NCBI GenBank assembly: GCA_042852035.1
Contig: BAAFHK010000002.1
Span: forward strand, 60,001-92,000
Direction of reading: 5' to 3'
Source of the DNA: Candidatus Saccharimonadota bacterium
GTDB taxonomy: Bacteria > Patescibacteriota > Gracilibacteria > BD1-5 > UBA2023
Length of the DNA stretch: 32,000 nt
The notes under the pieces are model-generated. The model was not told where the DNA came from, did not search any database, and saw only the letters and a program-made list of their open reading frames with translations. Shown here piece by piece: positions 1,970 through 28,174 of the stretch; position 1 is the stretch's first letter, and every line of letters begins with the position of its first letter. The position numbers and the translations under genes are program-made.

Positions 1970-4441
1970 ATGAATCTTCTCCAGAGGACACGAGCGGTTT
2001 CTTGGTTGAGTCTTTCTCTAATAACCCTCTCCATCTCTTTGGAGAATATCGCTGCGGCTCCATTCCCGATGGATGGAAGCTTCACGGCTCGTACGATTCA
2101 GACGAATCAACAGGGAAGGGTCGCGAGAAATGCTTCTGTGACTATCCGCATAGGAGGACTTACTAATGGATTTCCAGCACTGAATAATACTTCGACACAA
2201 TGTTTTAATCAATCAGGAGAACCTCCTAAACCTTATGGTATATTTCTTGATAACACCTCTCTGAATATCAGTCAGTGTGAAGCCTATAATGGGACTAATA
2301 TTATTCGACTCTCCTGAGCCTTTATCATAGATCCATTTTTAGCTCCTACAACCAAAGCAACTCCGACACAAATCGCCAATGCGATCGTCGCACGAGGATA
2401 CCTCTACGAAAATGGGACAACGAATCAATCATTTACTGTCGCGAGTGCTGGCGGAAGTGATGTTGTATTCACTCGAACGAATACCAATGATGGGAATATC
2501 ATCTATACAAATAGTATCTTCGATTCTTCGGATGCATTTCGATTGATGAATTCAGTGAGTGGTCAGTCTCCACTCACGTCTCTCGTACAGCAGTCGACAT
2601 TTACGCCAGCGAATGTTGGTTCAGGAGAAATATATACTATGGATATCGAAGGATACACCTATGAGTATACGGCTCAAGCAGGTGACAGTGTGAGTAATGT
2701 AACAGCCGGAATTATTGCCGCATATAATGCAGCACCACTTGGAAACGTGAATTGTGTCGATCAAACGACTCGAGTCCTCTGTTCTGGAACGGTTGATACT
2801 CAGAGCTTCTCTATCGATGCGTATGTGACATACCCAAATCCAGATACAACCGCACCAATTGTAACCCTTCTCGGCAGTGCAAGTTATGCTCTCGAATATG
2901 GAACACCATTCACAGACCCTGGAGCAACATGGCTCGATAATCGAGATGGTACAGGTACCGTTATGGGCTCTGGTACCGTCGATCATATGACTCTCGGTAC
3001 CTATACGCTCAGCTATAACAAATCAGACCTTGCAGGAAATACAGCTTCCGGGAAGATGCGTACGGTCACTGTTGCAGATACAACGGCTCCAACTATCACC
3101 CTTCTTGGTTCGGATCCTGTGACCGTCGAGATAGATAGTGGATACGATGACGACTGAGCAGAATGGACGGATATCCGTGATGGTTCTGGTAGAGTGAATG
3201 CTCTCCCTTACACTATGAATGCCCTCGGGAATCTAACTCTGACGTATCAGAAAGTAGATGTTGCTGGAAATACTGGTACCGTTACTCGAACGCTTAATGT
3301 CGTCGATACCGTCGCTCCAACGCTCTCTATAAGTACAACTCCGACAACCGTCGATGCGAATGTATTCCCAGTACGAGGAAGTATCGGAGGGTATGGTAGT
3401 GTCACTATCTCAGGTGGAGCTTCCCCGGTTACCCTCTCGAATGTAAATAATAGCTTCACGGCCTATGTCCCACTCACACAAAATTCGGTCAATACCCTCC
3501 TTATCACTGCCACTGACCTCGGAAACAATGTCTCGACAGGGACAATTCTCATTACAGAAAGTGGTGCAGCAAATGGATTCTCTGGGGCAATCAATATGAA
3601 TAGATCAAGTCTTGCCCTTTCTGGTATAACATCACACTCTGGCTCAAGTCTTACTGGTGCAACTCGAGTACTCGTCGAAGCGCCAATATTCTTCTGAGGA
3701 AAGTGAGGCATAGGGACTATCCCAACAAATACGGTTATTACTCCTGCATCAGGAAGTGGTGTATTTGACGCTACGGCAATAAATACCTTCTCAGTGACTG
3801 TTACAGGTGGACTTGCACCAACAGATGTTTCAAAGGGTACTGTTGGATTCGGAATTTCTGAAATAGGATTACACTTTAGTAAGCCGGTAAAGATTGAGAT
3901 TCCCGTCAATGGATACAGTGGTTCGACGATAGCAGTAAAGGTACGTCATGGTGGTACATCAACATTTGTCACGACGGGTCTCACAAATAATCCAAATGCT
4001 ACCTGTACCAATGGTGTCGCATCATCACCCTCAAATATTGCTACCGTAGTTTCGAGTATGGCGACCATATATACATGTGCTGCTTCGGCATTTGTTGCTT
4101 ATACCGAGACAGTCACTTCAGTGACTTCATGAAGCTCAGGTTGAGGAAATTCAGTGGGATACATCCCTCCTACTCCTCTCCCTTGAACAACTCCTTCTCC
4201 TTCTTTTGGATCAGGGGCTTCATTAAGTACGGAAATTGCACGATTTAGTATCGATACAAAGTCACTTTCAAAATCAAAAGTCCTAAAAACAGCAACCTCT
4301 CTCAAGAATGGAACAAAAATAGTTGTCTATCGACTTTCTCTTGGATGAAGAGAGATTCGAGTCTGACAAACGAGAGTAAGTCGCTCGATGATTCAGTATC
4401 GAGTAAAGACAAAAGGAACTTATATTTTCCGAACAAAATAA
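1970..4441 (+). CDS. secreted surface protein with tandem DUF5011-type Ig-like domains (823 aa)
   Basis: Track ORFs 1970..2317, 2543..3157, 3194..3697 and 3794..4132 share one frame. All gaps were checked codon by codon and contain only TGA, no TAA/TAG. Stop is TAA 4439-4441. N-terminal signal-like MNLLQRTRAVSWLSLSLITLSISLENIAA. Two repeats of TAP(I/T)(V/I)TLLGS...(Y/E)..PGA.W.D.RDG.G.V...LG.YTL.Y...D.AGN....R.V.V.DT.AP match my memory of DUF5011. Confidence 0.7.
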
Positions 4442-5704: not shown

Positions 5705-6558
5705 ATGAAAATCTGATTTATCGGACTTGGACTTATGGGTATTCCCATGGCAAAAAATATTATCTCGAAGTGACGAGAACTTTTTGTGTGGAATCGTAGC
5801 AGAGAGAAGGCTTATGAGCTCGAAAATCTTGGAGCGAAAGTTTGCGATACGAAAAAGTCTCTCGCACAAGAGGTGGATATCCTTATAACCATGGTGACAG
5901 CAGGGGAGGATGTAGAGGATATACTTTTTGGATTTGATGGGGTAGCTTCGTCGATGAAATCAGGGAGTATCATCATCGATATGTCGACTATAGGTGTTGA
6001 TTGGGCTATGAAAATTGGTGAACGACTTCAGAAACATGGTATCTATTTTCTTGATGCTCCAGTAACAGGAAGTACCCCGAAAGCGATAACAGGAGAACTT
6101 ACAGTATTTATCGGAGGAGAGAAGGAAGTATTTGAAAAAATTAAACCACACTTGCTCTTATGGGGACGAATCTCCAATATATGGGACCTACAGGATCCTG
6201 ACAGGCCATGAAACTCGTGAACAACTCACTTGTTGCTTTTTCGATGATTGGTCTCGGAGAAGTGATGAAACTCGCTGATTTTATGGGGCTCCCACTTGCT
6301 CGCACGGCTGAAGTTATCAAAACCCTTCCCGTAGGATCCCCTTATACTGCGATGAAAGTCGATAATTTTGTAAAAAATGAATATCCTATGATGTTTTCTC
6401 TTGCAAACATGAAGAAAGATATCGCCCTTGCCTTCGAAGAAATGGAAAAACATGGTCTTTCTCTCGATATGCTCTCACTGGCGAAAGTGAAATATGAGCA
6501 AGGAGTTGAAGAAGGATTTGGAGGAGAAGATGTGTCAGCGATCGGTAAAATTCTTTAA
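5705..6558 (+). pseudogene. NAD(P)-dependent oxidoreductase of the 3-hydroxyisobutyrate dehydrogenase family, interrupted by a -1 frame change near 6150-6160
   Basis: N-terminal Rossmann half (MKIGFIGLGLMGIPMAKN...DAPVTGSTPKAITGELTVFIGGEKEVFEKIKPH) is in the frame of ATG 5705. The conserved continuation LALMGTNLQYMGPTGSGQAMKLVNN...GKIL is in the frame of 6208, which carries TAA at 6142-6144. The switch must therefore lie between 6145 and about 6160. This is either a genuine 1-nt deletion or an assembly error. Confidence 0.6.
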
Positions 6559-7408: not shown

Positions 7409-9508
7409 ATGCAGGCAAAATTTGAAGAAACGGATAACCGAAATCCTCTCGATAAATATACCATAAATCTTACCGCATTAGCTAAAGATGGAAAAATCGA
7501 TCCAGTAATTGGTCGAGAAGATGAAATCTATCGTACTATTCAGATTCTTTCTCGTCGAACAAAAAATAATCCAGTTCTTGTCGGCGATCCATGAGTGGGG
7601 AAAACAGCAATAGTCGAGGGGATTGCTCGAAAAATCGTGGCACATGAAGTTCCTGAGATGCTTTTTGATCGAGAAATTCGCACCCTTGATCTTACTTCCC
7701 TTATTGCTGGAGCAAGCTATCGTTGACAGTTCGAAGAGCGCCTTAAGTGAGTAATAGATGAGGTCGAAAAATCAGAAGGGAAGATTATCCTTTTTATTGA
7801 TGAGCTTCATACGATTGTCTGAGCTTGAGCGACCGAAGGGAGTTCGGATGCAGGAAATCTCCTTAAACCTTCTTTAGCACGTGGGCGTATTAAAGTTATT
7901 GGTGCAACCACTATTTCAGAATATCGAAAATATATCGAAAAGGATGGGGCACTAGAACGTCGATTTCAGCCGATTCCCGTGGAAGAACCAACTCGAGATG
8001 ATGCCGTTGCTATTTTGAGAGGACTTAAAGATCGGTATGAATTATTTCATGGGATTCGGATTTCAGATGATGCTTTAGTAGCAGCGGTCGATTTCTCGAT
8101 TCGCTATATTGGAGATCGAAAACTCCCTGATAAAGCCATCGATCTCCTTGATGAAGCAACATCGAGCGTGAAGATGCGTTCGTATTCTCGACCGATTGAG
8201 CTCGATAAAATAGAAAAAGAGATCCGTTCTCTCGAAATCGAAAGAGAAGCCATAAAAGAAGAGAAGGACAAAAAGACCCGTCTTTCAGAGATTGAGGAAG
8301 AAATTACCCTTAAAAAAAGTTCCCAAGAAGAATTCTTAAAAGATTGGACAGCATCAAAGAAGAACCGTGATCGGATAAAGTTCCTTCAAAATGAAATTCT
8401 TGAACTTGAGAAACAAGCTGAAGAGTTAACTTATAGTGGTGAATATGCAAAAGTAGCAGAAATACGCTATGGCAAAATTCCAGAAAAAAAGAAGGAACTT
8501 GATCTTATAGAATGAAGTGCCACCTGTAATGAGACCGTGAAAGAAGATGATGTAGCAGGAATTGTCGGAAAATGGACTGGTATACCTGTCTGAAAGCTTC
8601 TGGAGAAGGAGAGCGCTATTTATGCTCATTTAGAAAGTGAACTCGAAAAATTTGTAGTGGGACAAGATGAACCTCTTCGTAAAGTATCTGAGGCTCTTCG
8701 TCGTTCCAAGGCTGGACTTTCTGACCCGAATAGACCAATAGGATCATTTCTCTTTCTTGGTCCTACGGGGGTTGGAAAAACAGAAACAGCAAAAGCTCTT
8801 TGTCGTATCCTCTGGAACAATCCACATGCCTATATTCGATTTGATATGAGTGAGTATATGGAGGCCCATAGTGTAGCAAGGCTTATTTGAGCTCCTCCTG
8901 GATACATTGGACATGAAGAAGGTGGGCAACTCACAGAGGCTATTAGACGTCATCCATATTCTGTCATACTCCTTGATGAAGTTGAAAAAGCTCATCCTGA
9001 TGTGTGGAATATTTTTCTTCAGATTCTTGATGAAGGTCGTATCACAGATGGGAAGGGGAGAACGATAGACATGAAGAATACCATTATTATCATGACTTCA
9101 AATATCGGAAGTCATCTTCTCGATGAGAATAACGAAAAAAACCTCGAAAAGAAAATGAGAGAGGAGCTTAAAAAATTCTTCCGTATCGAATTCATAAACC
9201 GGATTGATGAAATTATTATTTTTCGCCCACTTTCTCATGAGAGTGTCTTAAAAATTGCAAGCATTCTTCTCAGAGAGGTTCAGAGTCAACTCTTAGAAAG
9301 AGAAATTAATCTGACTTTTGATGCAAGTATTCTTGAATGAGTAGCAAAGCTTTGATATGATGCTGAACTTGGCGCCAGACCTATACGTCGTGCTCTGAGT
9401 GAATATGTAATAAATCCTCTCTCAAAAATGATTCTTGATTGAGTTATTCAAACATGAACTACAAAAGTAGCCTTATTTGACAGAGACTATAAACTAGTAT
9501 TAAAATAA
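7409..9508 (+). CDS. clpB: ATP-dependent chaperone ClpB, naturally lacking the N-terminal domain (699 aa)
   Basis: Track ORFs 7403..7594, 7979..8515, 8657..8890 and 9002..9340 share one frame, and the gaps contain only TGA. Motifs: [41 protein letters not shown] (Walker A Gly is TGA 7592-7594), a coiled-coil middle domain, [21 protein letters not shown] (TGA 8888-8890), [12 protein letters not shown] and GARPIRR. TAA 9506-9508. Confidence 0.9.
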
Positions 9509-9614: not shown

Positions 9615-12600
9615 ATGACATCTCTTTTTCGCAAGTTCCTTGCCTCTTCCTTGGTGGGTACCCTCCTGCTAAGTAATACGGTTTCTCTATTTCTCGTAGA
9701 GAGTACATATGCCGCGCCTGATTCGGATGGTTCTGCAAATATTGACCTTTTTGTCACACCTACAGTGCCAACGAGTTCACTGATTGGTACGAATTTTACC
9801 TATGATGTAAGTCTTGAAAATAAGACTTCTTCCGATGGTGATGGATATCGACCATGATTTATCTTATCGCTTCCGGCTTGAGTGAATCTTGTGAGTACTT
9901 GAGTTCTCGGAAGTCCAGTTCGGACCGTTGTTCATAATAGTGGAAGTACCCTATTATTTTTTGAGACAAGTCTCATTAGTCTCAAGAGTACAACAGTCCA
10001 CTATCCTATTACTCTTGTATCAAATAATACGGCTTGAGTCTTTGTAAATAAGGATATAGGAGTTTTGGTTTATGCTGATGATAGTATATATGGTCGTGGA
10101 GCAGCTCCTTCTGGTGCTCCTCCAGGGACTTTGACATGAGGAATTGATTTTGCTGCTGGCAGTGGAGTAACTATGCCAGATACGACTAATATGACTTTCC
10201 CAAACAATATTAATAGCAGTACAAATCTCAGCACTCTGCCATTTGTTACTCCTCAGACTCGATTTTTTCCTTTTGATGTAAGAAAAGAAGAAGAACCGAA
10301 AGAGCTCATCGGAATACCATTTCTTACGACGCTTCGAGTAGTAGGGAATAGTATGGGGCCATTACAACACTTTCACATACAAGACGTTATCCCTACGAAT
10401 AGGGCATTTTCATGAATTGTATCGGTGGTGGGATGAACCGTAGGAGGTACGAATATTACCTATGATGCTCCAGCTGGATGACAGGTTACTCTTGATTTTA
10501 CTGATATCTCCGTCCCAACATCATCAGAAGTGGTTATTACGTATGAAACTATTCCTCTTGCCTATGATGCAATGAGTTATAGTGGATGAGTCCCAGTACT
10601 TGATACAGGAAGTGTTGTTCCTCACCGTGATCCATCACCAAATACTGTTACTATGCACACTGGTGGGCTTGCGCTCGTTGGTTGACCATACGCTCCAAGT
10701 ACATGGAACAATGGAACTTCAGATATCCTTGTAAATTCGACAAGTATCATTCCACCAAAGACCACTCAAGTCTACAATCGCTATGCAAGACTCTCTAAGG
10801 GTGGAAATGTAAGTCAGGCGGTTATTTGAGATGTTGTGACTTATACGATTAATCTTGAAACGGCGAAAAATGCAGCATTTACCACAAACGCTACAGGAAC
10901 ATATATCGAGGATCACCTTCCTGATGGGCTTACTTACTCAGGTACCCTAAGTTCTACAGTTACATCATGAACGCCACTTACTTTCGTTTCTGCAACAACA
11001 GATGGAAATGGTGATACCACGGTTATTTGGCAGCTTAATTCATGAGTTATTGGTGCCAATGCAAATGTTCAGATTGTATATCAGGCAGTGCTAGATGGAC
11101 TCTTTGAAGGAGCAGGACCAACAGAATATGTCAATACACAAACCCTCGTAAATGATGCTGCATTTTATGGTACTGTTGGAGATGGCGGACTCTCTGGAAT
11201 ATGGGGAGCGACAGATCCATCAAAAGTGGATACTTCAGTGTATATCCATGCTTCACGTTATGATGATAATGCTGTAGCTACGGTAAATGCTCCAGTCCCA
11301 ACCATGAAGAAGCAGCTTATATCTGTCACGGTTCCTGGTGGTATGGTGTACGATTATAATACAGGACTTCCAGGATCTATCCCTCCGGGTTCAGCACTAA
11401 GATTCGCTCTTACTATGGACTTCCCGAAAGTGAATTTTCTAAATCCTAAGATTATTGATGCTCTCCCTCTTCTTGCTTGACCGAATACGAGCGCCTATAA
11501 CATAGCCTTCCAGACGAATCCAAGCCTGAAGGATATTTATAATTCAGGGGTACTTTTCAATACCAATGATGGAACCACTCCTTCATCAGACTTTAATGGA
11601 CTCAATCTCATAGGTACAACCATACCAAATGCAGCTTGGATTAGTGCTACACCAGCAAATAACCTTGAATTTCAACTCAATTCATGAGTAGGAAAGAAGA
11701 CCTTTGCTATCCTTTTTACTGTAGATGTATTATCAACTGAACCAGCAGGAGGAGTATCAACCTCGGGTCTTGTTCCACTTACAAACTATGCTTATAGTAC
11801 TTATAGCGATCCATCAGGTTCTCCTCTTCTTCTTCCAGTTATGGATATACCATTTACTGTAAATTTTCCATCAGTGAGTGCTACAAAGACGGCATCTGGC
11901 TGAACAAATGTGGAAGCTGGAAAAGATATTACCTATACTATTACTCTCACGAATACTGGTTCAAGTCCAGCATTTCTCGAAAATATTATCGATACACTCC
12001 CAGCAAATATGGACTTTATTACAGGTTCTATCATGGCCAGTGGTGCTGTCTCTAATCTTGCTGATTCTGCTTTTGTACAATCAGGGAATGTTCTCACTCT
12101 GGCATTCGATACAGGTTCTACATGAGTCAATAGAAGCTATATTCCGACAGACAATACGGGTACACCAACGGTAAAAGAAAATATTGTAGTTATTCAATAT
12201 ACTATCCGACCAAATACCAGTTTCGTCATCGCATGAGGCGCAACTCGCACCAATACTGTTACACTCGATTACTACGCGAGTTCTGGAGCTATCTCAAATG
12301 GTGTGAATAATCTTGGTCCTGTAACCACTTCTTCAAATGTAACCGTAAAATCCCCTTCAGTAACTCGTTCACTGCTTTCAACCACAGAAGTGGATAGTGC
12401 TACGAACAATCTCTATGTAGGTGAAGAAGTTACGTATCGTACGATTATTACCCTTCCAAATGGTACATTTAACCTCGCGAATTATACGGAAGCAATAAAT
12501 ACGAACCTTCAGTTCCTTACATGAACAGTAGTGTCATATAGTTGAGGTCTTACATTTTCAAATGGTACAACATTCTCTGGTCCTACAGTAAATTTCTGAA

Positions 12601-15600
12601 CCATTACAAATGCTGATACAGATCCAAATACTCTTGAAACTGTCGTTATCGATACTGTATACCGTGTAAAATCGACAGCGGTTGCAGGCACAAATTACAA
12701 TAATAATGGTACTTTTACATACTCTTCTACTTCAGCAGCCTCAGGAATCGTTGTAAATGTCCGAAAGCCGACTGTTACCCTTTCAAAATCCGTATCACCA
12801 ACAACCGGTGATGCAGGAAATATCGTCACGTACACAATTACTGCAAACAATACGAGTACTACGGCAGATGCTTATGATATCCATATTACCGATGTGCTTC
12901 CATCATATCTTACTTATGTAACTGGAAGTCTCTCACTCGGATCTTATTCTGGAACATATACCGACCTCTTTTCTGGAAGTGGTGGAGGAAATGGTCTAAC
13001 TCTTGATCGTATACCAGTTTCTTCTGGTGCATCATTTAGTTTCCAAGCTCTCCTCAATGATACTGTTCAACCAGCAAATAGTTACACTAACAGGGCAGAT
13101 CTTATCTATGATACTCTTGATGATGATAATTCTCTCTATGAATGGAGCGGTGGAGTTTCTGCTACTGCGGTTGTGAGTGTTCCAGATGTGACACTTACTC
13201 ATGCTATTACTTCTACGAGCCTTGCTGATACAACAAGTGCACTCTTTAGTGGGGCTATTGTTGATGCGGCAATAGGGGAACATATTTTCTACACTACAAC
13301 TCTTGGCTTTCCAGAATGATTTGCAACAGGAGTGACTCTTACTCAAACACTCCCTTCAAGCATGAAATTTCTTTCTGGATATATTCTCTTTGATGGAGTA
13401 AAATCTCACACACTTTCAAATATAGTCATTGGTCCAAATAATATTATTACATTCTCTCTCGGTGATATCGATAATGCTGGAATAGGTGCAGGAACTGGCA
13501 TAACAATTGTTACCGAAGCAGTTATGCTAGATAATGTTGCTAATACTGCAGGGAGTATAAAAACTTCAACACTCCAGGTAAGCTATTCCGAGAAGACAAA
13601 ACTAGCAAATACCTTTGTTGAGCCTGTAGAACCAGCTCTCTCTATCGTAAAAGATTACTCACCAAATACAGGAGATGCAGGGGATACAATCCCAGTAACT
13701 ATTACGGTTACAAATACAAGTCAAGTCTATGCTTATGATGTGGTTCTTACGGATATTCCTCCTTCGAAACTTACCCCAGGAGTTGGATTTAGTGGAACTA
13801 TTAATATTGGTACTCTTGCCCCAGGACAGGTCGTAAACTTCAGCTATGATAGTACTATCAATAACACGGTAAATCCAGGAGAAATCCTTACGGGAACGGC
13901 AAGTGTTCTTTATACATCATATCCTGGAACTCCAGTCGATGGAGAACGATCATATACTGCTACGGATAATGATTTCATAAATATCGTTACCCAGTGATCA
14001 ATTGATATTACCTTACTTTCATCTCCAGATGTTGCAATAGGAAATATTTCTCAGTATGAAATCCGAATTCCAGTAGGTGAAGGAGTTACAAATGTTCTTG
14101 ATGTATCAGGCCTCCTTCCTCCTGGTATGGCTCTTATTCCTTCCAGTGTAGTTATTACTCCAGATCCAAGTATTACTTATTCATGAACAGTTACTCCAGT
14201 ATTGACACCATCTTCAGATACAATCACTGCTGGATCCTCTCAGACAGCTACATATACTTTCACAGGAGTAAATAACACCAATACAGATAACGGAACTACA
14301 GAGTATATTACTATCAGGTATGATGCAGTCCTTCTCAACAGTACAGATACAAATAATGGAGGTACAAAAAATCATAGCGTAACCGTACTCTATGATGGAT
14401 CAAATACAAAATCATGAGCCTCTCTTCCTATTACTATCCGTGAACCGAATGTTGTTCTTAGCGTATCAAATACCTACATGTATAATGCTTCAGTTCCGTA
14501 TGTATTTACCTTAGTAAACACAGGAACCTCCACGGCATACAACCTCGATCTTTCTACCCTTCTTCCTCCAGGGGTTTCATATACATGAAATATTAGCATT
14601 ACAAACTCCGGAGGGGCAGTGAACCTGATTCGAGTATGAGATACATTTACCATAGATTCTCTTCCAGTTAATTCCGGAAATCCTCTCGTCTTTACGATTA
14701 ATGGTGCTATTTCAGAATCTGTTCCGAATTTTACGAACCTCACTCTTACAGGTACAGTAGTTTATACATCAGAGGCTTGATCTCATGTTCCTCAGACATC
14801 AAACTCTCTTGATACAGAAAGAACAAGCTGATGAGGAGTAAATGATTATATTGATGCGAATAAGACCACATCATTTATCCTCAATATTCCACTTCTCGAT
14901 GAAGCGATTAGTGTACTCGATCTTAATGGTTGAGATGGGATTATCGGAGATATTTTCGAATATACAGTTACTCTTACCAATACAGGAAATGTAGCTCTTA
15001 CGAATATTCCAGTAAACCTTGATATTCCACTAGGATTTACAGGATTTGTTGTGACCTCTACTCCAGCAGGATCAATAAATCTCTCTACTTCTACAGGTTG
15101 AGTAAATGGTGTCTGATATCTCTCACTTTCAGGTGTTAACATTCCTATTGGTTCGAGCGTAAATATTGTCTATCGAGTTACTGCTCTTACCTCAGTTGTT
15201 CCAGGTACAACACTTTCAACGACGGCTCAAGTAGGAAATAGTTTTGAGTGAGCAATTTGAGGTACTCCAAGTGTCCCAGTTACCATCAATGCCCCTAAGC
15301 TACTTAGTACAGCATCTGAAATAGACCTCAATGGAGGAAGTATGCTCCAAAATGAGACCATAGAGCACAGATTTACTCTCACGAATACTGGTACAGCTAC
15401 GGGCACAAATCTCTCAGTTACTCTTACTTGGGGTACGGGTTCTCGATATACTCCAGAATCTCTAGTGTTCCAATCATGAACCCTTATAAATACAGGAACA
15501 GTGTTTGTAGATATAGTTTCGAATACAATAACATTTACTGTATTAGCCTTTCCTCCTTGAGCTACCGAAGCCTTTACCTTCCACAGTCTAACAACGGGAC

Positions 15601-16784
15601 CTATAGGAACAATTATTTCTAGTAATATAAATGGAACTGTTGATGAATGAGTATCGACATCGACCACAAGCAATCTCCTTATTATAGTAGATAATACTCC
15701 ATGAGCTGGCTGATCTCAGTGAGGATCATCCCCAGTCAATCAAGTACCAGTCTTTACTCCAACTAAGACAGAAGTACTTCCTCAAGTAACTCCTCCTTCT
15801 GAAAAAAAGCCAACAACCATTGTAAAGAGTCCTTTAGATAATGAATATAATAATTATCTTAAACTCAAGAAACGTTTGAGTGATCTTGTTGCTGAAGAAA
15901 ACATGGCAGGAGTGAAGCAATTTACTTCTCCGAAAGTTCTTCCGCAAACAGGAAAGAGTATTCTTTCAAGAGTTAAGAAGCTTGTGAACTCAAAATTGAA
16001 TCTTGAGGCTCCTACCTTTACTCACGGAGGAAAAGATGTACGAGACGATCTCGCGTTCTGGCTTACTGATGTACCAAAAGTAGATCAATCTCGAGATGAG
16101 TACATTGTTCTTCCATCAAATGGTATGGTGGTTCCAATTACTACAGCCCCAAAAGAGAGTGATGTCTATAAAAAACTGATTAGCGGAAGAGAAGGGAACA
16201 TCAACACTTACCTTAAGTCTTGAGTTCTGGTATATCCTGGGTCAAATAATCAATGATATGGTGGAATTGGAAATACAGTTGTCTTTGGTCATTCATCTTA
16301 CTGGAAGTCTGATGATGGAAGATATAAGACTCATTTTCAGAAGATTATTGAGCTTGATGTTGGTGAAGAGGTATGGGTATATAAAAAGCAAGCAGATTGA
16401 AGCTATAAGCGTTACCGTTATAATACAACCGCTTCTTATGAAGTAAAACCTACTGATGTCTCAGTCCTTGAGCCAGGAATAGGGAAGAATCTTACTCTCT
16501 TTACTTGTACACCGATTGGGAATATCGCGGGTCGTTGGGTAGTAAAGGCGAAATATATTGATGAAGAGAAAAAACATATCGAAGATCTTCTTTTTGGGAA
16601 GCTTCTTTCAAGTACTGAACAAAAAGAGGTTTCAAAGTATCTCCAATCCCTCAAATCTCTTACTATCGAAGATAAAAAATCAAGCCTTCTCAAAAAGTAT
16701 GACACAATAAATGCTTTAAACTCCAGTAACTATAAGAACTACTTCCTCATGCAAATTGCAAAAACATATAAGGAACTGAAATAA
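9615..16784 (+). CDS. giant secreted DUF11-repeat adhesin with C-terminal LPQTG motif and fused sortase domain (2389 aa)
   Basis: The frame of ATG 9615 was checked codon by codon to TAA 16782-16784. It has no TAA/TAG and 44 in-frame TGA by my count. It unites track ORFs 9615, 10173, 11088, 11910, 12303, 12894, 13332, 14202 and 15876. Signal peptide MTSLFRKFLASSLVGTLLLSNTVSLFLVESTYAAP. About nine modules carry the G(D/K)x(I/V)xYT(I/V)x(L/V)xNTG...(L/I)P signature. Confidence 0.8.
15939..15953 (+). other. LPQTG sortase-recognition-type pentapeptide inside the adhesin ORF (aa 2109-2113)
   Basis: CTT CCG CAA ACA GGA in the adhesin frame, in the context SPKV-LPQTG-KSILSRVKK. No hydrophobic helix follows it. 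Confidence 0.6.
16095..16562 (+). other. sortase catalytic domain encoded at the 3' end of the adhesin ORF
   Basis: DEYIVLPSNGMVVPI..., GNTVVFGHSSY (His codon 16290-16292), GKNLTLFTCTP (Cys codon 16506-16508) and AGRWVVKA (Arg codon 16533-16535). This is the His/Cys/Arg triad in the canonical sortase order and spacing. Confidence 0.7.
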
Positions 16785-16789
16785 AAATT

Positions 16790-16813
16790 TCCCTCGAATA
16801 GAGGGATTTTTTT
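16790..16813. terminator. bidirectional terminator between the adhesin gene and the convergent GIY-YIG operon
   Basis: TCCCTC (16790-16795), 5-nt loop, GAGGGA (16801-16806), then a T7 run. An A/T-rich run on the other side serves the minus strand. Confidence 0.65.
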
Positions 16814-25337: not shown

Positions 25338-27359
25338 ATGCACACAAAAAGTCAGCAAGCCTTTAGAAAATGAGCTATTATATTTGCATCCTTTCTTTCG
25401 GGTGTTGTCATAACGGTTTTTGCAGCTGCGACCTATGACGCAAGTATTCAGGAACGATCAGCAAAAATGCTTGCTGCCATCAAAAGTAATGCCACGAATC
25501 TTAACTCAGATGATGCAGTGGCATATTATTCACTTGTACGAGAAAATATCAAAACCCTTATTGCAGTTCTTACAGAAGTTGATAAAGGACTTGCTGTACT
25601 CTCCAATGATGGAAATATTATTCCTTCTCCAGGAACTACTTCAGGAACTTCAAATCCTGCAAACCCTACAAATCCAGGCACAGCAACCGGTACAAGTGGA
25701 GGTATTGTATGTAGTGGTACCTATCCAAAATGAGATCCGAATGCTTCATTTTGGCCGAACGGTGGATTTGTGACCTGACCATCAATAACAGACCAATCCA
25801 ATCGAGTCTGGAAATATAAGTATGCTGGTACTTGTATGTTTGATTGTGTAACGGGATATACGTATAATACCGTTAAGAATATTTGTGAAAAAGATGCCTA
25901 TGCTTGGTCTTGTGGTTTTACAACAGGAGGATCTGCTGCTGATCCAAGTACATGTAATGCTAGTACCGTTGGTACACATTCAAGCAATAATTGTACCTGT
26001 GAGCTTACAGGTGGACCGAAAGGAAGTCCTATTTCCTTTACGGTTCCAGAAGGAGTGTTTGATATGGCAGCACCTAAAACCCTTACAACTCGCTTAGATA
26101 AAGTTGGCGCTCAAACTCTTCTTCTTTGTCAGGAAATCCTTTCCCATCCGCTTGCAACAGTAACCAAAAATGAAGGTGCATGTCAGAATTCTTATGCCTA
26201 TTCGCCCCTTCCTGCTTCATCTTGATGGAAATATACGAATTGAGGATATGATGTAGTCGTTCCTTATGATGCTACTATTTGGGGAGCTGCAGGAATAAAA
26301 ACTCGATTCTTCGTAAAGGATAAAACAACCAATCAAATCGCAACCTATACTATTAGTGTAAAAAATAGTGGATCAGCCACTCCTCCGGGTACAGGAACTC
26401 CTCCGGGTACAGGAACTCCTCCGGGTACAGGAACTCCTCCGGGTACAGGAACAAACCCGAATCAAGATCCAGTAGTTTGTACTGGAAATCTCCCTACAGC
26501 AAATGTTGTTTCTTCCATACAGTCTACGTATTCTATGGTGGGATATGATAGCACAAATAGAACGTGGAAATATGGATTTAATGGCACATGTTCATGGTCA
26601 TGCGCAAAATGATATGTAGTAAATACAACAAAGACAGCATGTGAACCACCTAAACCAGGAACTGGTATATCTATTACTGTGGTTGATAAAAGCGGTGCGC
26701 CACTAGCATGAACGGCTCTTTGACTTGTTTATAATCCGAATGCATGAGAAAATGGGTGGACCACTAATCCAAATGGATTTGTTGAGATTTTTCCTGAAGC
26801 TTGATATTCAGCCGGAGTACTTACTATTAATAAGGCAGGATATATTATTTTCTCAGCAGAATGATGTTCAAGTCGAAATGGCGTAGCCTCTACTATTGGT
26901 GGGCAACCGTATTCATACTGTGACAGTACCCCTCTTGCTCCTGGAACAAAGATTAAGGTCGTCATGATGTCTACACCATCAAACTTTCAAAATTTCTCCT
27001 TCCAAAACCTCCAAAATGGAGAGGGAGTATTTTATATCAATGACACAAGAAATCATCTTATTACTACAAAGATTTCATGAGTTTCCCTGGAGGATACTCT
27101 CTCTTGTGTAGAGATACTTGCTCATCCAAATTATCCAAATCTTGTCAATGAAGGGTATTGTTCAGATGCTTCTCATTTTACTCCTTTTTCTGGAAACTCA
27201 GAGTGGGCATGGTCCGCAGAAAGCGGTGGTACTTGGACAGGAAATATTAAATATAGCGATGAGATATATGGTGCTGCAGGTATCCGAGTAAGAGTATTTA
27301 TGAAAAATAAATCAACTAATCAATCAGCAAGCTTTGTTATCGCGGTGTATAAGTCATAA
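25338..27359 (+). CDS. membrane-anchored or secreted Cys-rich protein with internally duplicated modules (673 aa)
   Basis: ATG 25338 to TAA 27357-27359, with every codon checked. Joins track ORFs 25467..25733 and 25836..26225. N-terminal anchor AIIFASFLSGVVITVFAAA, low-complexity PSPGTTSGTSNPANPTNPGTATGTSGG, two Cys-rich modules, two longer modules ending ..GAAGI(K/R).R.F.K.K(T/S)TNQ.., and a 4x TPPGTG linker. Confidence 0.65.
26379..26450 (+). repeat. perfect 4 x 18-bp tandem repeat (ACTCCTCCGGGTACAGGA) encoding (TPPGTG)4
   Basis: Four identical units at 26379-26396, 26397-26414, 26415-26432 and 26433-26450, in frame within the Cys-rich protein gene. Confidence 0.95.
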
Positions 27360-27373
27360 TTTTCAGATTTCTT

Positions 27374-28174
27374 ATGAAAAATCACTCGCTCATCCACCGT
27401 TCCATTCTCATTTCATGACTCATTTTTTTTAGTGGCGCTATTTGCTCCCATGTTAATGCGGATGTTTTTGATGATGAACTTAATGGCCTTCTTACAAAGC
27501 CAACTATCACTACTGAAACACTTGCTGATGGCTCAATAGTATCAACGGTCTCAATTTGATGATCTTCAAGTAGTGCTACTTCCTGATATATTACATTTCC
27601 TGATGGTGTAAAAATCCAATTTAGCAAACCCTCTTCCGGTCCAACTACATTTGTGAACTTAAGTAACGGAACAAAAACAGTATGTATCGGGAAGAGCTGT
27701 AATGGAAATATGAATATATCTCCATCGTTTCAATCATCTTTCTCATCTTTGAGTCAGTCAATCGCATCAAATAATGTTGCTTATAATTCTAATAACTCCG
27801 GTCCAATGACCGTAATCGTAAGTGAAAAAGTCCCTTGAGCCGTTTGTGTCTGTTATATTGGATGACCAGGTGCTAGCGAAGCTACCTGTGAAGCAGCAAC
27901 TGTTGAGACTCGTCTCTATCAGTGTACTGTAGATCGAGGTATGACTGCCTTTCAGAATCTCTTTCGTGATATAATAAAGTGGACTATCTATATTATCATG
28001 CTTCTCTGAGTTCTTGCTCTTGTATGAGCCTGAATACTCTGGGCATGGGGAAGTGAGAGTGAGGAGTACACAAAGAAAGCAAAATGATGGGCAGTGAATA
28101 TCATCGTATGACTCGCAATACTCTTTACCTTCCGTTATATACTTGGATTTCTTGCTCCTTGGATATTTATGTAG
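27374..28174 (+). CDS. secreted protein with C-terminal TrbC/VirB2-like (T4SS-pilin-like) two-TM domain (266 aa)
   Basis: ATG 27374, 14 nt after the upstream stop. TAG 28172-28174. Frame checked; 12 or more TGA codons. Signal-like MKNHSLIHRSILISGLIFFSGAICSHVNA. The C-terminus is FQNLFRDIIKWTIYIIMLLGVLALVGAGILWAWGSESEEYTKKAKGWAVNIIVGLAILFTFRYILGFLAPWIFM: two TM helices around a short charged loop, as in VirB2/TrbC-type pilins common in CPR. Confidence 0.6.

Follow-up and report, generated by a model that had tools for sequence, protein, structure and literature searches.

Sortase biology rests on two tenets: a substrate is held in the membrane by its C-terminal hydrophobic tail, and a separate, membrane-anchored enzyme processes many such substrates. 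The classical case is the sorting of LPXTG proteins, such as protein A, by SrtA of Staphylococcus aureus. Here we describe a gene from a member of the Gracilibacteria in which an adhesin, an LPQTG motif and a sortase domain are encoded as a single polypeptide. It lies in a 32,000-nucleotide stretch of contig BAAFHK010000002.1 (hereafter the window, numbered from its first letter). This fusion shares a signal peptide, an adhesin-type passenger, a Pro/Thr-rich stalk and an LPxTG motif with classical substrates, and its enzyme portion shares with classical sortases the Cys transpeptidase character, the His-Cys-Arg triad and the TLxTC signature. Unlike in the classical system, its motif is internal and lacks the helix and basic tail, and the enzyme is anchor-free and sits in the same polypeptide, C-terminal to the motif.

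Other systems resemble the fusion in part. Class C pilus sortases have an N-terminal extension that packs on the catalytic domain just before strand beta-1, as is also seen in the model of a fusion homolog. However, class C enzymes carry a DP(F/W/Y) lid, are membrane-anchored, are encoded apart from their pilins and use the Lys of a pilin motif, whereas the fusion has LPxTG, no anchor and no YPK. Engineered self-cleaving sortase tags (BISOP, PMC2901362) combine enzyme and LPXTG in one chain and cleave themselves by design, as is proposed for the fusion. That these tags work (PMC2901362) indicates that one-chain self-cleavage is chemically feasible. They are artificial constructs of the order sortase-LPXTG-cargo that are used in the cytoplasm or in vitro for hydrolysis and release, in contrast to the cargo-LPxTG-sortase order and the anchoring proposed here. 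Hedgehog and Hint domains are likewise C-terminal, single-use catalysts that form a thioester at the junction and hand an N-terminal passenger to a nucleophile. This likeness is a functional analogy only and depends on the proposed cis mechanism, since the Hedgehog/Hint domains are not homologous to sortases, have an unrelated fold and perform an N-to-S acyl shift at their own first residue. In its presumed mode of action, the fusion comes closest to a classical sortase merged with its substrate, and in logic it also resembles the engineered tags. An earlier reading made from the sequence alone (the sequence-only reading) knew of no characterized example of this architecture, and the searchable full-text literature, outside of which most subscription journals lie, likewise contained no description of a natural substrate-LPxTG-sortase fusion, only engineered ones. 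Papers on Gracilibacteria and the Candidate Phyla Radiation (including PMC6851277) mention only ‘a sortase’.

The fused gene and its product

Read with genetic code table 25 (TGA = Gly), the frame is open from the ATG at 9615 to the TAA at 16782-16784, with no TAA or TAG, as the sequence-only reading had stated, and with 44 in-frame TGA codons. Three of the TGA codons fall within the sortase domain (residues 2203, 2214 and 2262) and align with Gly columns in 25/25, 17/25 and 20/25 relatives, respectively. This alignment to conserved glycines indicates that table 25 is the correct code. The ClpB gene upstream also requires 12 TGA read-throughs. The parts of the fusion gene are:

9615-16784, + strand: adhesin-LPQTG-sortase fusion open reading frame (ORF), 2389 codons, table 25; same order of parts in the orthologous loci L001, L002, L004 and L005
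9615-9713, + strand: Sec-type signal peptide, residues 1-33; predicted cut after TYA and before APDSDG (site assigned by eye)
9714-15704, + strand: passenger, residues 34-2030; adhesin region of beta domains rich in Thr, Ser, Gly and Val, with five DUF11, three DUF7507 and one DUF7619 matches and no Cys
12777-13127, + strand: top-scoring DUF11 module (Pfam), residues 1055-1171
15705-15938, + strand: linker, residues 2031-2108; Gly/Ser-rich, then Pro/Thr-rich, then Lys/Glu-rich, poorly conserved
15802-15808, + strand: A7 homopolymer within the linker, 137 nucleotides (nt) upstream of LPQTG; no other run of such length occurs in the gene
15939-15953, + strand: LPQTG sortase recognition motif, residues 2109-2113, within a conserved block P-K-x-LPxTG-x-x-I-x-x-R
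15954-16088, + strand: tether of 45 residues, 2114-2158, without a hydrophobic helix; short helices packed on the sortase in homolog models
16089-16553, + strand: sortase catalytic domain (PF04203), residues 2159-2313; homolog model matches class C and class A structures
16290-16292, + strand: catalytic His2226 (GNTVVFGHSS), invariant in 25/25
16506-16508, + strand: catalytic Cys2298 (TLFTCTP), invariant in 25/25, the sole Cys of the protein
16533-16535, + strand: catalytic Arg2307 (GRWVV), invariant in 25/25
16554-16781, + strand: helical tail of 76 residues, 2314-2389, ending in YFLMQIAKTYKELK; kept in most of the family and predicted as a three-helix bundle in a homolog

The signal peptide consists of a basic N-terminus followed by a hydrophobic core (19-residue Kyte-Doolittle mean 1.66), and the orthologs have equivalent N-termini with A-x-A-like ends. 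In the passenger, Pfam matched DUF11 (PF01345) above threshold in five stretches (89.1 bits), DUF7507 (47.7 bits) and DUF7619. The passenger had been described as about 2000 residues of DUF11-type repeats. The five DUF11 matches agree with that description, but only part of the region is recognized as DUF11 or DUF7507, and no internal repeats are found at the level of BLAST; the idea of a repetitive passenger was dropped after an empty self-comparison. The linker, in turn, may be the counterpart of the wall-spanning stalk that precedes classical LPXTG motifs.

LPQTG occupies the residues and nucleotides originally assigned to it, and it is internal, with 276 mostly hydrophilic residues between it and the C-terminus. 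Past residue 2100, the 19-residue Kyte-Doolittle mean reaches a maximum of 0.8, within a catalytic beta strand, so that no hydrophobic helix with a basic tail follows the motif. Pfam gave no Gram_pos_anchor match at E <= 0.1, the YPK pilin motif is absent from all 2389 residues, and the hydropathy scan detected no membrane or signal anchor between residue 2100 and the catalytic domain. These results confirm the claims that nothing hydrophobic follows LPQTG and that the sortase has no anchor of its own. Because it lacks a signal peptide or transmembrane (TM) helix of its own, the sortase domain depends on the fusion for its export.

The complete sortase domain and the triad named in the sequence-only reading were both recovered: the Pfam Sortase model matched residues 2195-2313 (envelope) with 55.3 bits against a cut-off of 26.6, and the three catalytic residues do not vary among the relatives. 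Models of the named classes (NCBIfam) scored below their cut-offs, at 28.8 bits for class E and 28.6 for class C (cut-offs 160) and 27 for TIGR01076 (cut-off 39.35), and the closest solved structure by sequence was found at E = 1e-3. The enzyme is thus a member of the sortase superfamily that by sequence lies outside every named class A-F. No DP[FWY] lid motif occurs in residues 2114-2160. The helical tail was considered as a membrane-binding amphipathic helix, a role that was rejected given its low hydrophobicity and a hydrophobic moment of at most 0.36.

Conservation of the layout and contrast with relatives

A search with the C-terminal 342 residues as query yielded 83 relatives, and 80 genomic loci (L001-L080) were fetched. 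ORFs were rebuilt from the genomic DNA, because many database gene calls had used the wrong code, with Trp in place of TGA-encoded Gly. Among the 83 relatives, an LPxTG-like motif lies about 45-50 residues before the sortase core, irrespective of the part upstream. In the TGA-recoded Gracilibacteria loci (L001-L024), the sortase forms the C-terminal end of ORFs of 492-3445 residues that start with a signal peptide, and four of these loci (L001, L002, L004 and L005) encode clear orthologs of the window protein, 2387-2400 residues long. Frame and domain order are kept in at least 15 independent Gracilibacteria loci, in assemblies from different studies, which answers the question raised by the sequence-only reading of whether the order of repeats, LPXTG and sortase recurs in other genomes. 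Counted from the Leu of LPxTG, the catalytic Cys follows after 185-191 residues in most loci (189 in the window protein), with outliers at 197 and 217. Across 25 aligned sequences, the motif columns are conserved (L in 21, P in 19, T in 21 and G in 21), as are an Ile at +3 (19) and an Arg at +6 (21), and the linker upstream is unconserved. Cys2298 is the lone cysteine of the 2389 residues, and the same holds for the ortholog loci L001, L002, L003 and L005. Fusions with other passengers (L007, L011, L012 and L022) contain 15-30 cysteines, often closely paired.

Larger protein collections gave the same picture. The motif is found at its fixed position in 25/32 close metagenome family proteins that reach far enough upstream (14 strict, 11 relaxed). 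An exhaustive profile search of 1.84 billion representatives returned 171 clusters (50% identity) at E <= 1e-30, with lengths up to 3805 residues; 45 of the best 150 of these clusters are 450-3805 residues long. Forty long representatives (>=450 residues) could be scored, and 35 of them have the motif at this position (26 strict, 9 relaxed); a hydrophobic segment lies nearby in one. In about 150,000 residues of ORFs from the family genomes, LPxTG occurs 19 times, 17 of them close to a sortase and two elsewhere. The two cases outside the family position correspond to a chance rate of about 0.1% per 100 residues, in line with the earlier by-eye estimate of well under 1 percent for a linker of roughly 100 residues. 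Since frame, order and LPxTG-Cys spacing are conserved across independent loci, the fusion cannot be put down to an accident of assembly, nor the motif to chance. The view that adhesin, LPxTG and sortase are one translated unit whose parts work together, first proposed from the single sequence, is supported by the retention of order, frame and motif-Cys spacing in dozens of divergent proteins.

The passengers themselves are unrelated across the family and include DUF11/DUF7507/CARDB, SdrD_B, MucBP and Big_3 domains. DUF11/CARDB, SdrD_B, MucBP and Big_3 are the kinds of domain that Gram-positive bacteria anchor through classical sortases. Unrelated passengers that are nonetheless of sortase-anchored types point to a portable C-terminal module. 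Several genomes encode more than one fusion (L007 and L011; L013 and L017; L022-L024), so that each adhesin carries its own enzyme. In P0057, P0113 and P0114, SLH and PG_binding_1 modules replace or extend the tail after the sortase domain, which indicates a wall-associated rather than a membrane-associated enzyme; P0113 and P0114 also have LPQTG upstream (read as LPQTW in P0114).

Standard-code relatives show the opposite arrangement. Sortases of Peregrinibacteria and Saccharibacteria (L025-L060) are 260-430 residues long; a hydrophobic helix precedes the domain in nearly all of them, and a strict LPxTG is present in none. Among distant standard-code sortases, the motif was found in 0/23 and a TM helix in 23/23. 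Together with those of the Chloroflexi (L069-L080), these enzymes have a sortase domain homologous to that of the fusion, but it is preceded by a TM helix and the motif is absent, the reverse of the fusion on both counts. A permissive scan of 395 kb of Gracilibacteria DNA, a sample short of a whole genome, found no credible canonical sorting signal, and this lack of canonical substrates is suggestive rather than proven. In the same scan, 7 of 13 Firmicutes and Chloroflexi control loci, all from Chloroflexi, had a canonical substrate beside the sortase, and these pairs served as the positive control. In the Chloroflexi loci L069, L071, L072 and L076-L080, the adjoining gene encodes a protein of 550-760 residues with LPQSG, LPASG, IPKTG, VPQTG or IPQTG followed by a helix and a basic tail.

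Two complete homologs, P0025 and P0022, stood in for the window protein in AlphaFold 2 (AF2) models. Both models show the eight-stranded beta-barrel fold of sortases, with a predicted local distance difference test score (pLDDT) of about 90-98 for the domain. In P0025 (541 residues: signal peptide, passenger, Pro-rich linker, LPQTG and sortase), the domain is modeled at pLDDT 95-98 and the tether as short helices at 82-98; the ten-residue block that closes with LPQT scores 93 and the block before it 87, whereas the Pro-rich linker just upstream falls below 50. In P0025, AF2 therefore gives the motif a set place against the domain, beside a linker that is disordered. Foldseek matched the P0025 model to class C (lid-bearing) and class A sortases at E 3e-10 to 1e-7, with S. 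pneumoniae SrtC-3 (2w1k) and A. oris SrtC-1 (2xwg) on top, over about 205 aligned columns that include the N-terminal extension. The tail of P0022 was modeled as a three-helix bundle (helices 376-393, 398-418 and 423-439; pLDDT 77-92).

Proposed self-processing and competing explanations

We propose that the fusion is a Sec-exported giant adhesin whose last ~280 residues, comprising LPQTG, the 45-residue tether, the sortase and a small helical bundle, act as an anchoring cassette. In Gracilibacteria, this cassette would stand in both for the classical sorting signal and for the separate membrane-anchored sortase. Once exported, the sortase domain would fold, and its Cys2298 would attack the bond between Thr2112 and Gly2113, either in the same chain or in a sister chain. 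The adhesin might then be carried on the enzyme as a thioacyl intermediate until an amine, most probably that of a peptidoglycan precursor or stem peptide, resolves it. This would leave the adhesin covalently attached through its C-terminal Thr and set free a spent sortase fragment that starts with Gly. The default candidate for the amine is a peptidoglycan precursor or stem peptide, given that Patescibacteria are viewed as wall-bearing monoderms (PMC12857230) and that peptidoglycan synthesis was predicted for a closed Gracilibacteria genome (PMC6851277). We regard it as moderately probable that the cassette cuts its own or a sister chain and passes the adhesin to an amine, probably of a cell-wall precursor. 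Self-processing is the most economical reading because the domain is exported only as part of the fusion, its triad is invariant, the motif lies at a fixed distance and the enzyme is duplicated with each adhesin. The analysis thus shows the architecture, its conservation, intact catalytic residues, the lack of an anchor and a sampled stretch of DNA free of canonical substrates, while every chemical step, from the cleavage and its cis or trans nature to single-turnover behavior and the acceptor, is inferred.

Several observations weigh against self-anchoring. Once its signal peptide is removed, the anchor-free protein would need some means of staying at the surface until a wall precursor is met. 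The motif varies: in LPKMG and LPQSG the Thr is replaced by Met or Ser, and in IPQTR the Gly is replaced by Arg, which is unusual for a cleavable sortase site, and a fused subfamily (P0027, P0033, P0034, P0040, P0041 and P0046; P0024, P0031 and P0038) has LP(K/Q)MG, TPKMG or MPRTG and lacks the helical tail. We know of no sortase motif with Met at the scissile Thr position. Compared by eye, the exchange of Thr for Met and changes among active-site residues are confounded by phylogeny, so that no co-variation could be read from them. The complete short members P0011, P0054 and P0058 consist of a signal anchor, 15-60 residues, LPxTG and the sortase, and thus have almost nothing to anchor, which would suit a lid or pro-peptide better. 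L015 (nt 9815-10660) combines a TM helix with a degenerate IPQTR and a sortase, and the short forms P0011, P0054, P0058 and L015 may be pro-sortases or trans-acting housekeeping forms. The clade also includes anchored paralogs without the motif (L014, L018 and L019) that could cut in trans. Finally, the motif block of P0022 was modeled at a pLDDT of only 68 and the block after it at 44, so that support from the models for an ordered, docked motif is mixed, real but not robust.

Sortases generally act in trans, and the LPxTG might accordingly be cut by a sister fusion or by the short anchored paralogs, with the fused sortase cross-linking or polymerizing adhesins into a covalent layer or fiber. 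Consistent with this, the clade has passenger-less anchored paralogs (CALLPL01 holds L015 alongside the fusions L007 and L011), several fusions can occur in one genome, and the motif was not confidently docked in one of the two AF2 models, that of P0022. Yet trans processing leaves unexplained why each adhesin should come with an intact enzyme of its own, set at a constant distance from the motif. The tether is also conserved and predicted to pack on the domain, the window protein lacks a YPK-type pilin motif, and by eye no mature N-terminus is common to the different passenger types. We therefore consider this explanation unlikely. Two specific forms of polymerization were examined separately: a pilin type was rejected as YPK is absent, and head-to-tail joining through a conserved mature N-terminus was unsupported, as APDSDG-like N-termini are limited to orthologs with the same passenger. 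Alternatively, the LPxTG could be a pseudo-substrate or pro-peptide, a lid on the active site, comparable to that of class C sortases, that is cleaved slowly or never and holds back the activity of the enzyme until its destination is reached, thus serving in regulation and not in anchoring. The P0025 model has its closest structural matches among the lid-bearing class C sortases and shows an ordered motif segment, short forms with a near-zero passenger retain the motif, and degenerate variants (IPQTR, LLKTG and LPKMG) persist in anchored forms. Known sortase lids, however, use DP(F/W/Y) and not a faithful LPxTG, whereas the tether has no DP[FWY] and the motif is a faithful LPxTG. If the motif were never a substrate, the enzyme would have no visible substrate in 395 kb, and the Pro/Thr-rich stalk and adhesin-type passengers upstream mimic those of true substrates. 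A lid function thus seems distinctly improbable.

A technical origin, in which an assembly or frameshift error has fused separate adhesin and sortase genes, or in which the sortase arises from an internal start, can hardly be credited. It would fit the one frameshifted gene in the window (5705-6558), the A7 run in the linker and the related contig L006, which is split at such a run, but the frame across the junction is kept in at least 15 independent assemblies and in dozens of long database proteins, and a separately made sortase would be without an export signal. The internal start that the sequence-only reading had offered as an alternative (ATG 15901) lies at 15900-15902 and encodes Met2096; it was rejected, as Met2096 is unconserved, no promoter signal rises above chance and the product would be without an export signal. 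L006 was also rejected as a natural two-gene version, as 1000/1001 nt are identical to the intact L004, with one A less in the A7 run.

Loss of that A in L006 (A7 to A6, about nt 7740) uncouples the passenger from the LPQTG-sortase cassette; the indel reflects either a mistake in the assembly or slipped-strand switching, which would turn anchoring off. A7 or A8 runs are present 70-340 nt upstream of the motif in about 10/22 family genes.

Returning to self-processing, the thioacyl at LPQT might be resolved not by a wall precursor but by another subunit, giving fibers or a lattice, or by an amine in the envelope of a host or prey cell. Such a single-use covalent ‘harpoon’ is a speculative extension of the sequence-based proposal, and we hold it to be quite doubtful.

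Genomic surroundings and implications

The window has a G+C content of 39%, and the fusion gene is flanked by two candidate transcription signals:

9477-9506, + strand: promoter-like site TTGACA-18-TAAAAT, 11/12, upstream of the fusion gene; a consensus match only
16790-16806, + strand: terminator-like hairpin, then a T7 run, starting 6 nt past the stop codon

A scan of the adhesin/sortase junction found no promoter or terminator signal above chance, and the promoter-like site, single ORF and terminator-like hairpin together form a layout like that of a transcription unit.

Elsewhere in the window, an NAD-binding dehydrogenase gene (6PGDH/HIBADH-like; 5705-6558, + strand) has a frameshift near nt 6145-6167 that leaves it as two overlapping ORFs. 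Compared with its ortholog in L006 by tblastn, it passes from frame 1 to frame 3, as a pseudogene or through an assembly indel. An 823-residue secreted protein (1970-4441, + strand) has two Bact_surface_Ig-like domains and lacks both LPxTG and a hydrophobic C-terminus. Further downstream, a 266-residue protein (27374-28174, + strand) has a C-terminal region similar to TrbC/VirB2 pilins of type IV secretion systems (25 bits, slightly below the Pfam cut-off). It is flanked by large secreted proteins without Pfam matches at 25338-27359 (673 residues) and from 28430 to beyond 32000 (>1156 residues), and the region at 27374-28174 may be part of a Patescibacteria-type pilin cluster as described in PMC12857230.

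If the motif is a lid or pro-peptide, the fusion would nonetheless be the first sortase to be regulated by a faithful copy of the sequence that it recognizes. If the covalent harpoon were real, an epibiotic Gracilibacterium could weld itself or its adhesins to a partner cell, and an anchor-free sortase resident in the wall or the milieu would constitute a class of its own in enzymology and could serve as it stands as a self-ligating protein tag.

Collectively, a whole bacterial lineage appears to have given up both tenets of sortase biology. If self-processing is true, it would represent a natural sortase system with one enzyme per substrate, probably of single turnover, and would offer biotechnology a small, naturally occurring module with which proteins could ligate or anchor themselves. 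Moreover, it would provide a testable handle on how the ultrasmall, host-dependent and mostly uncultured Patescibacteria build and attach very large surface proteins.

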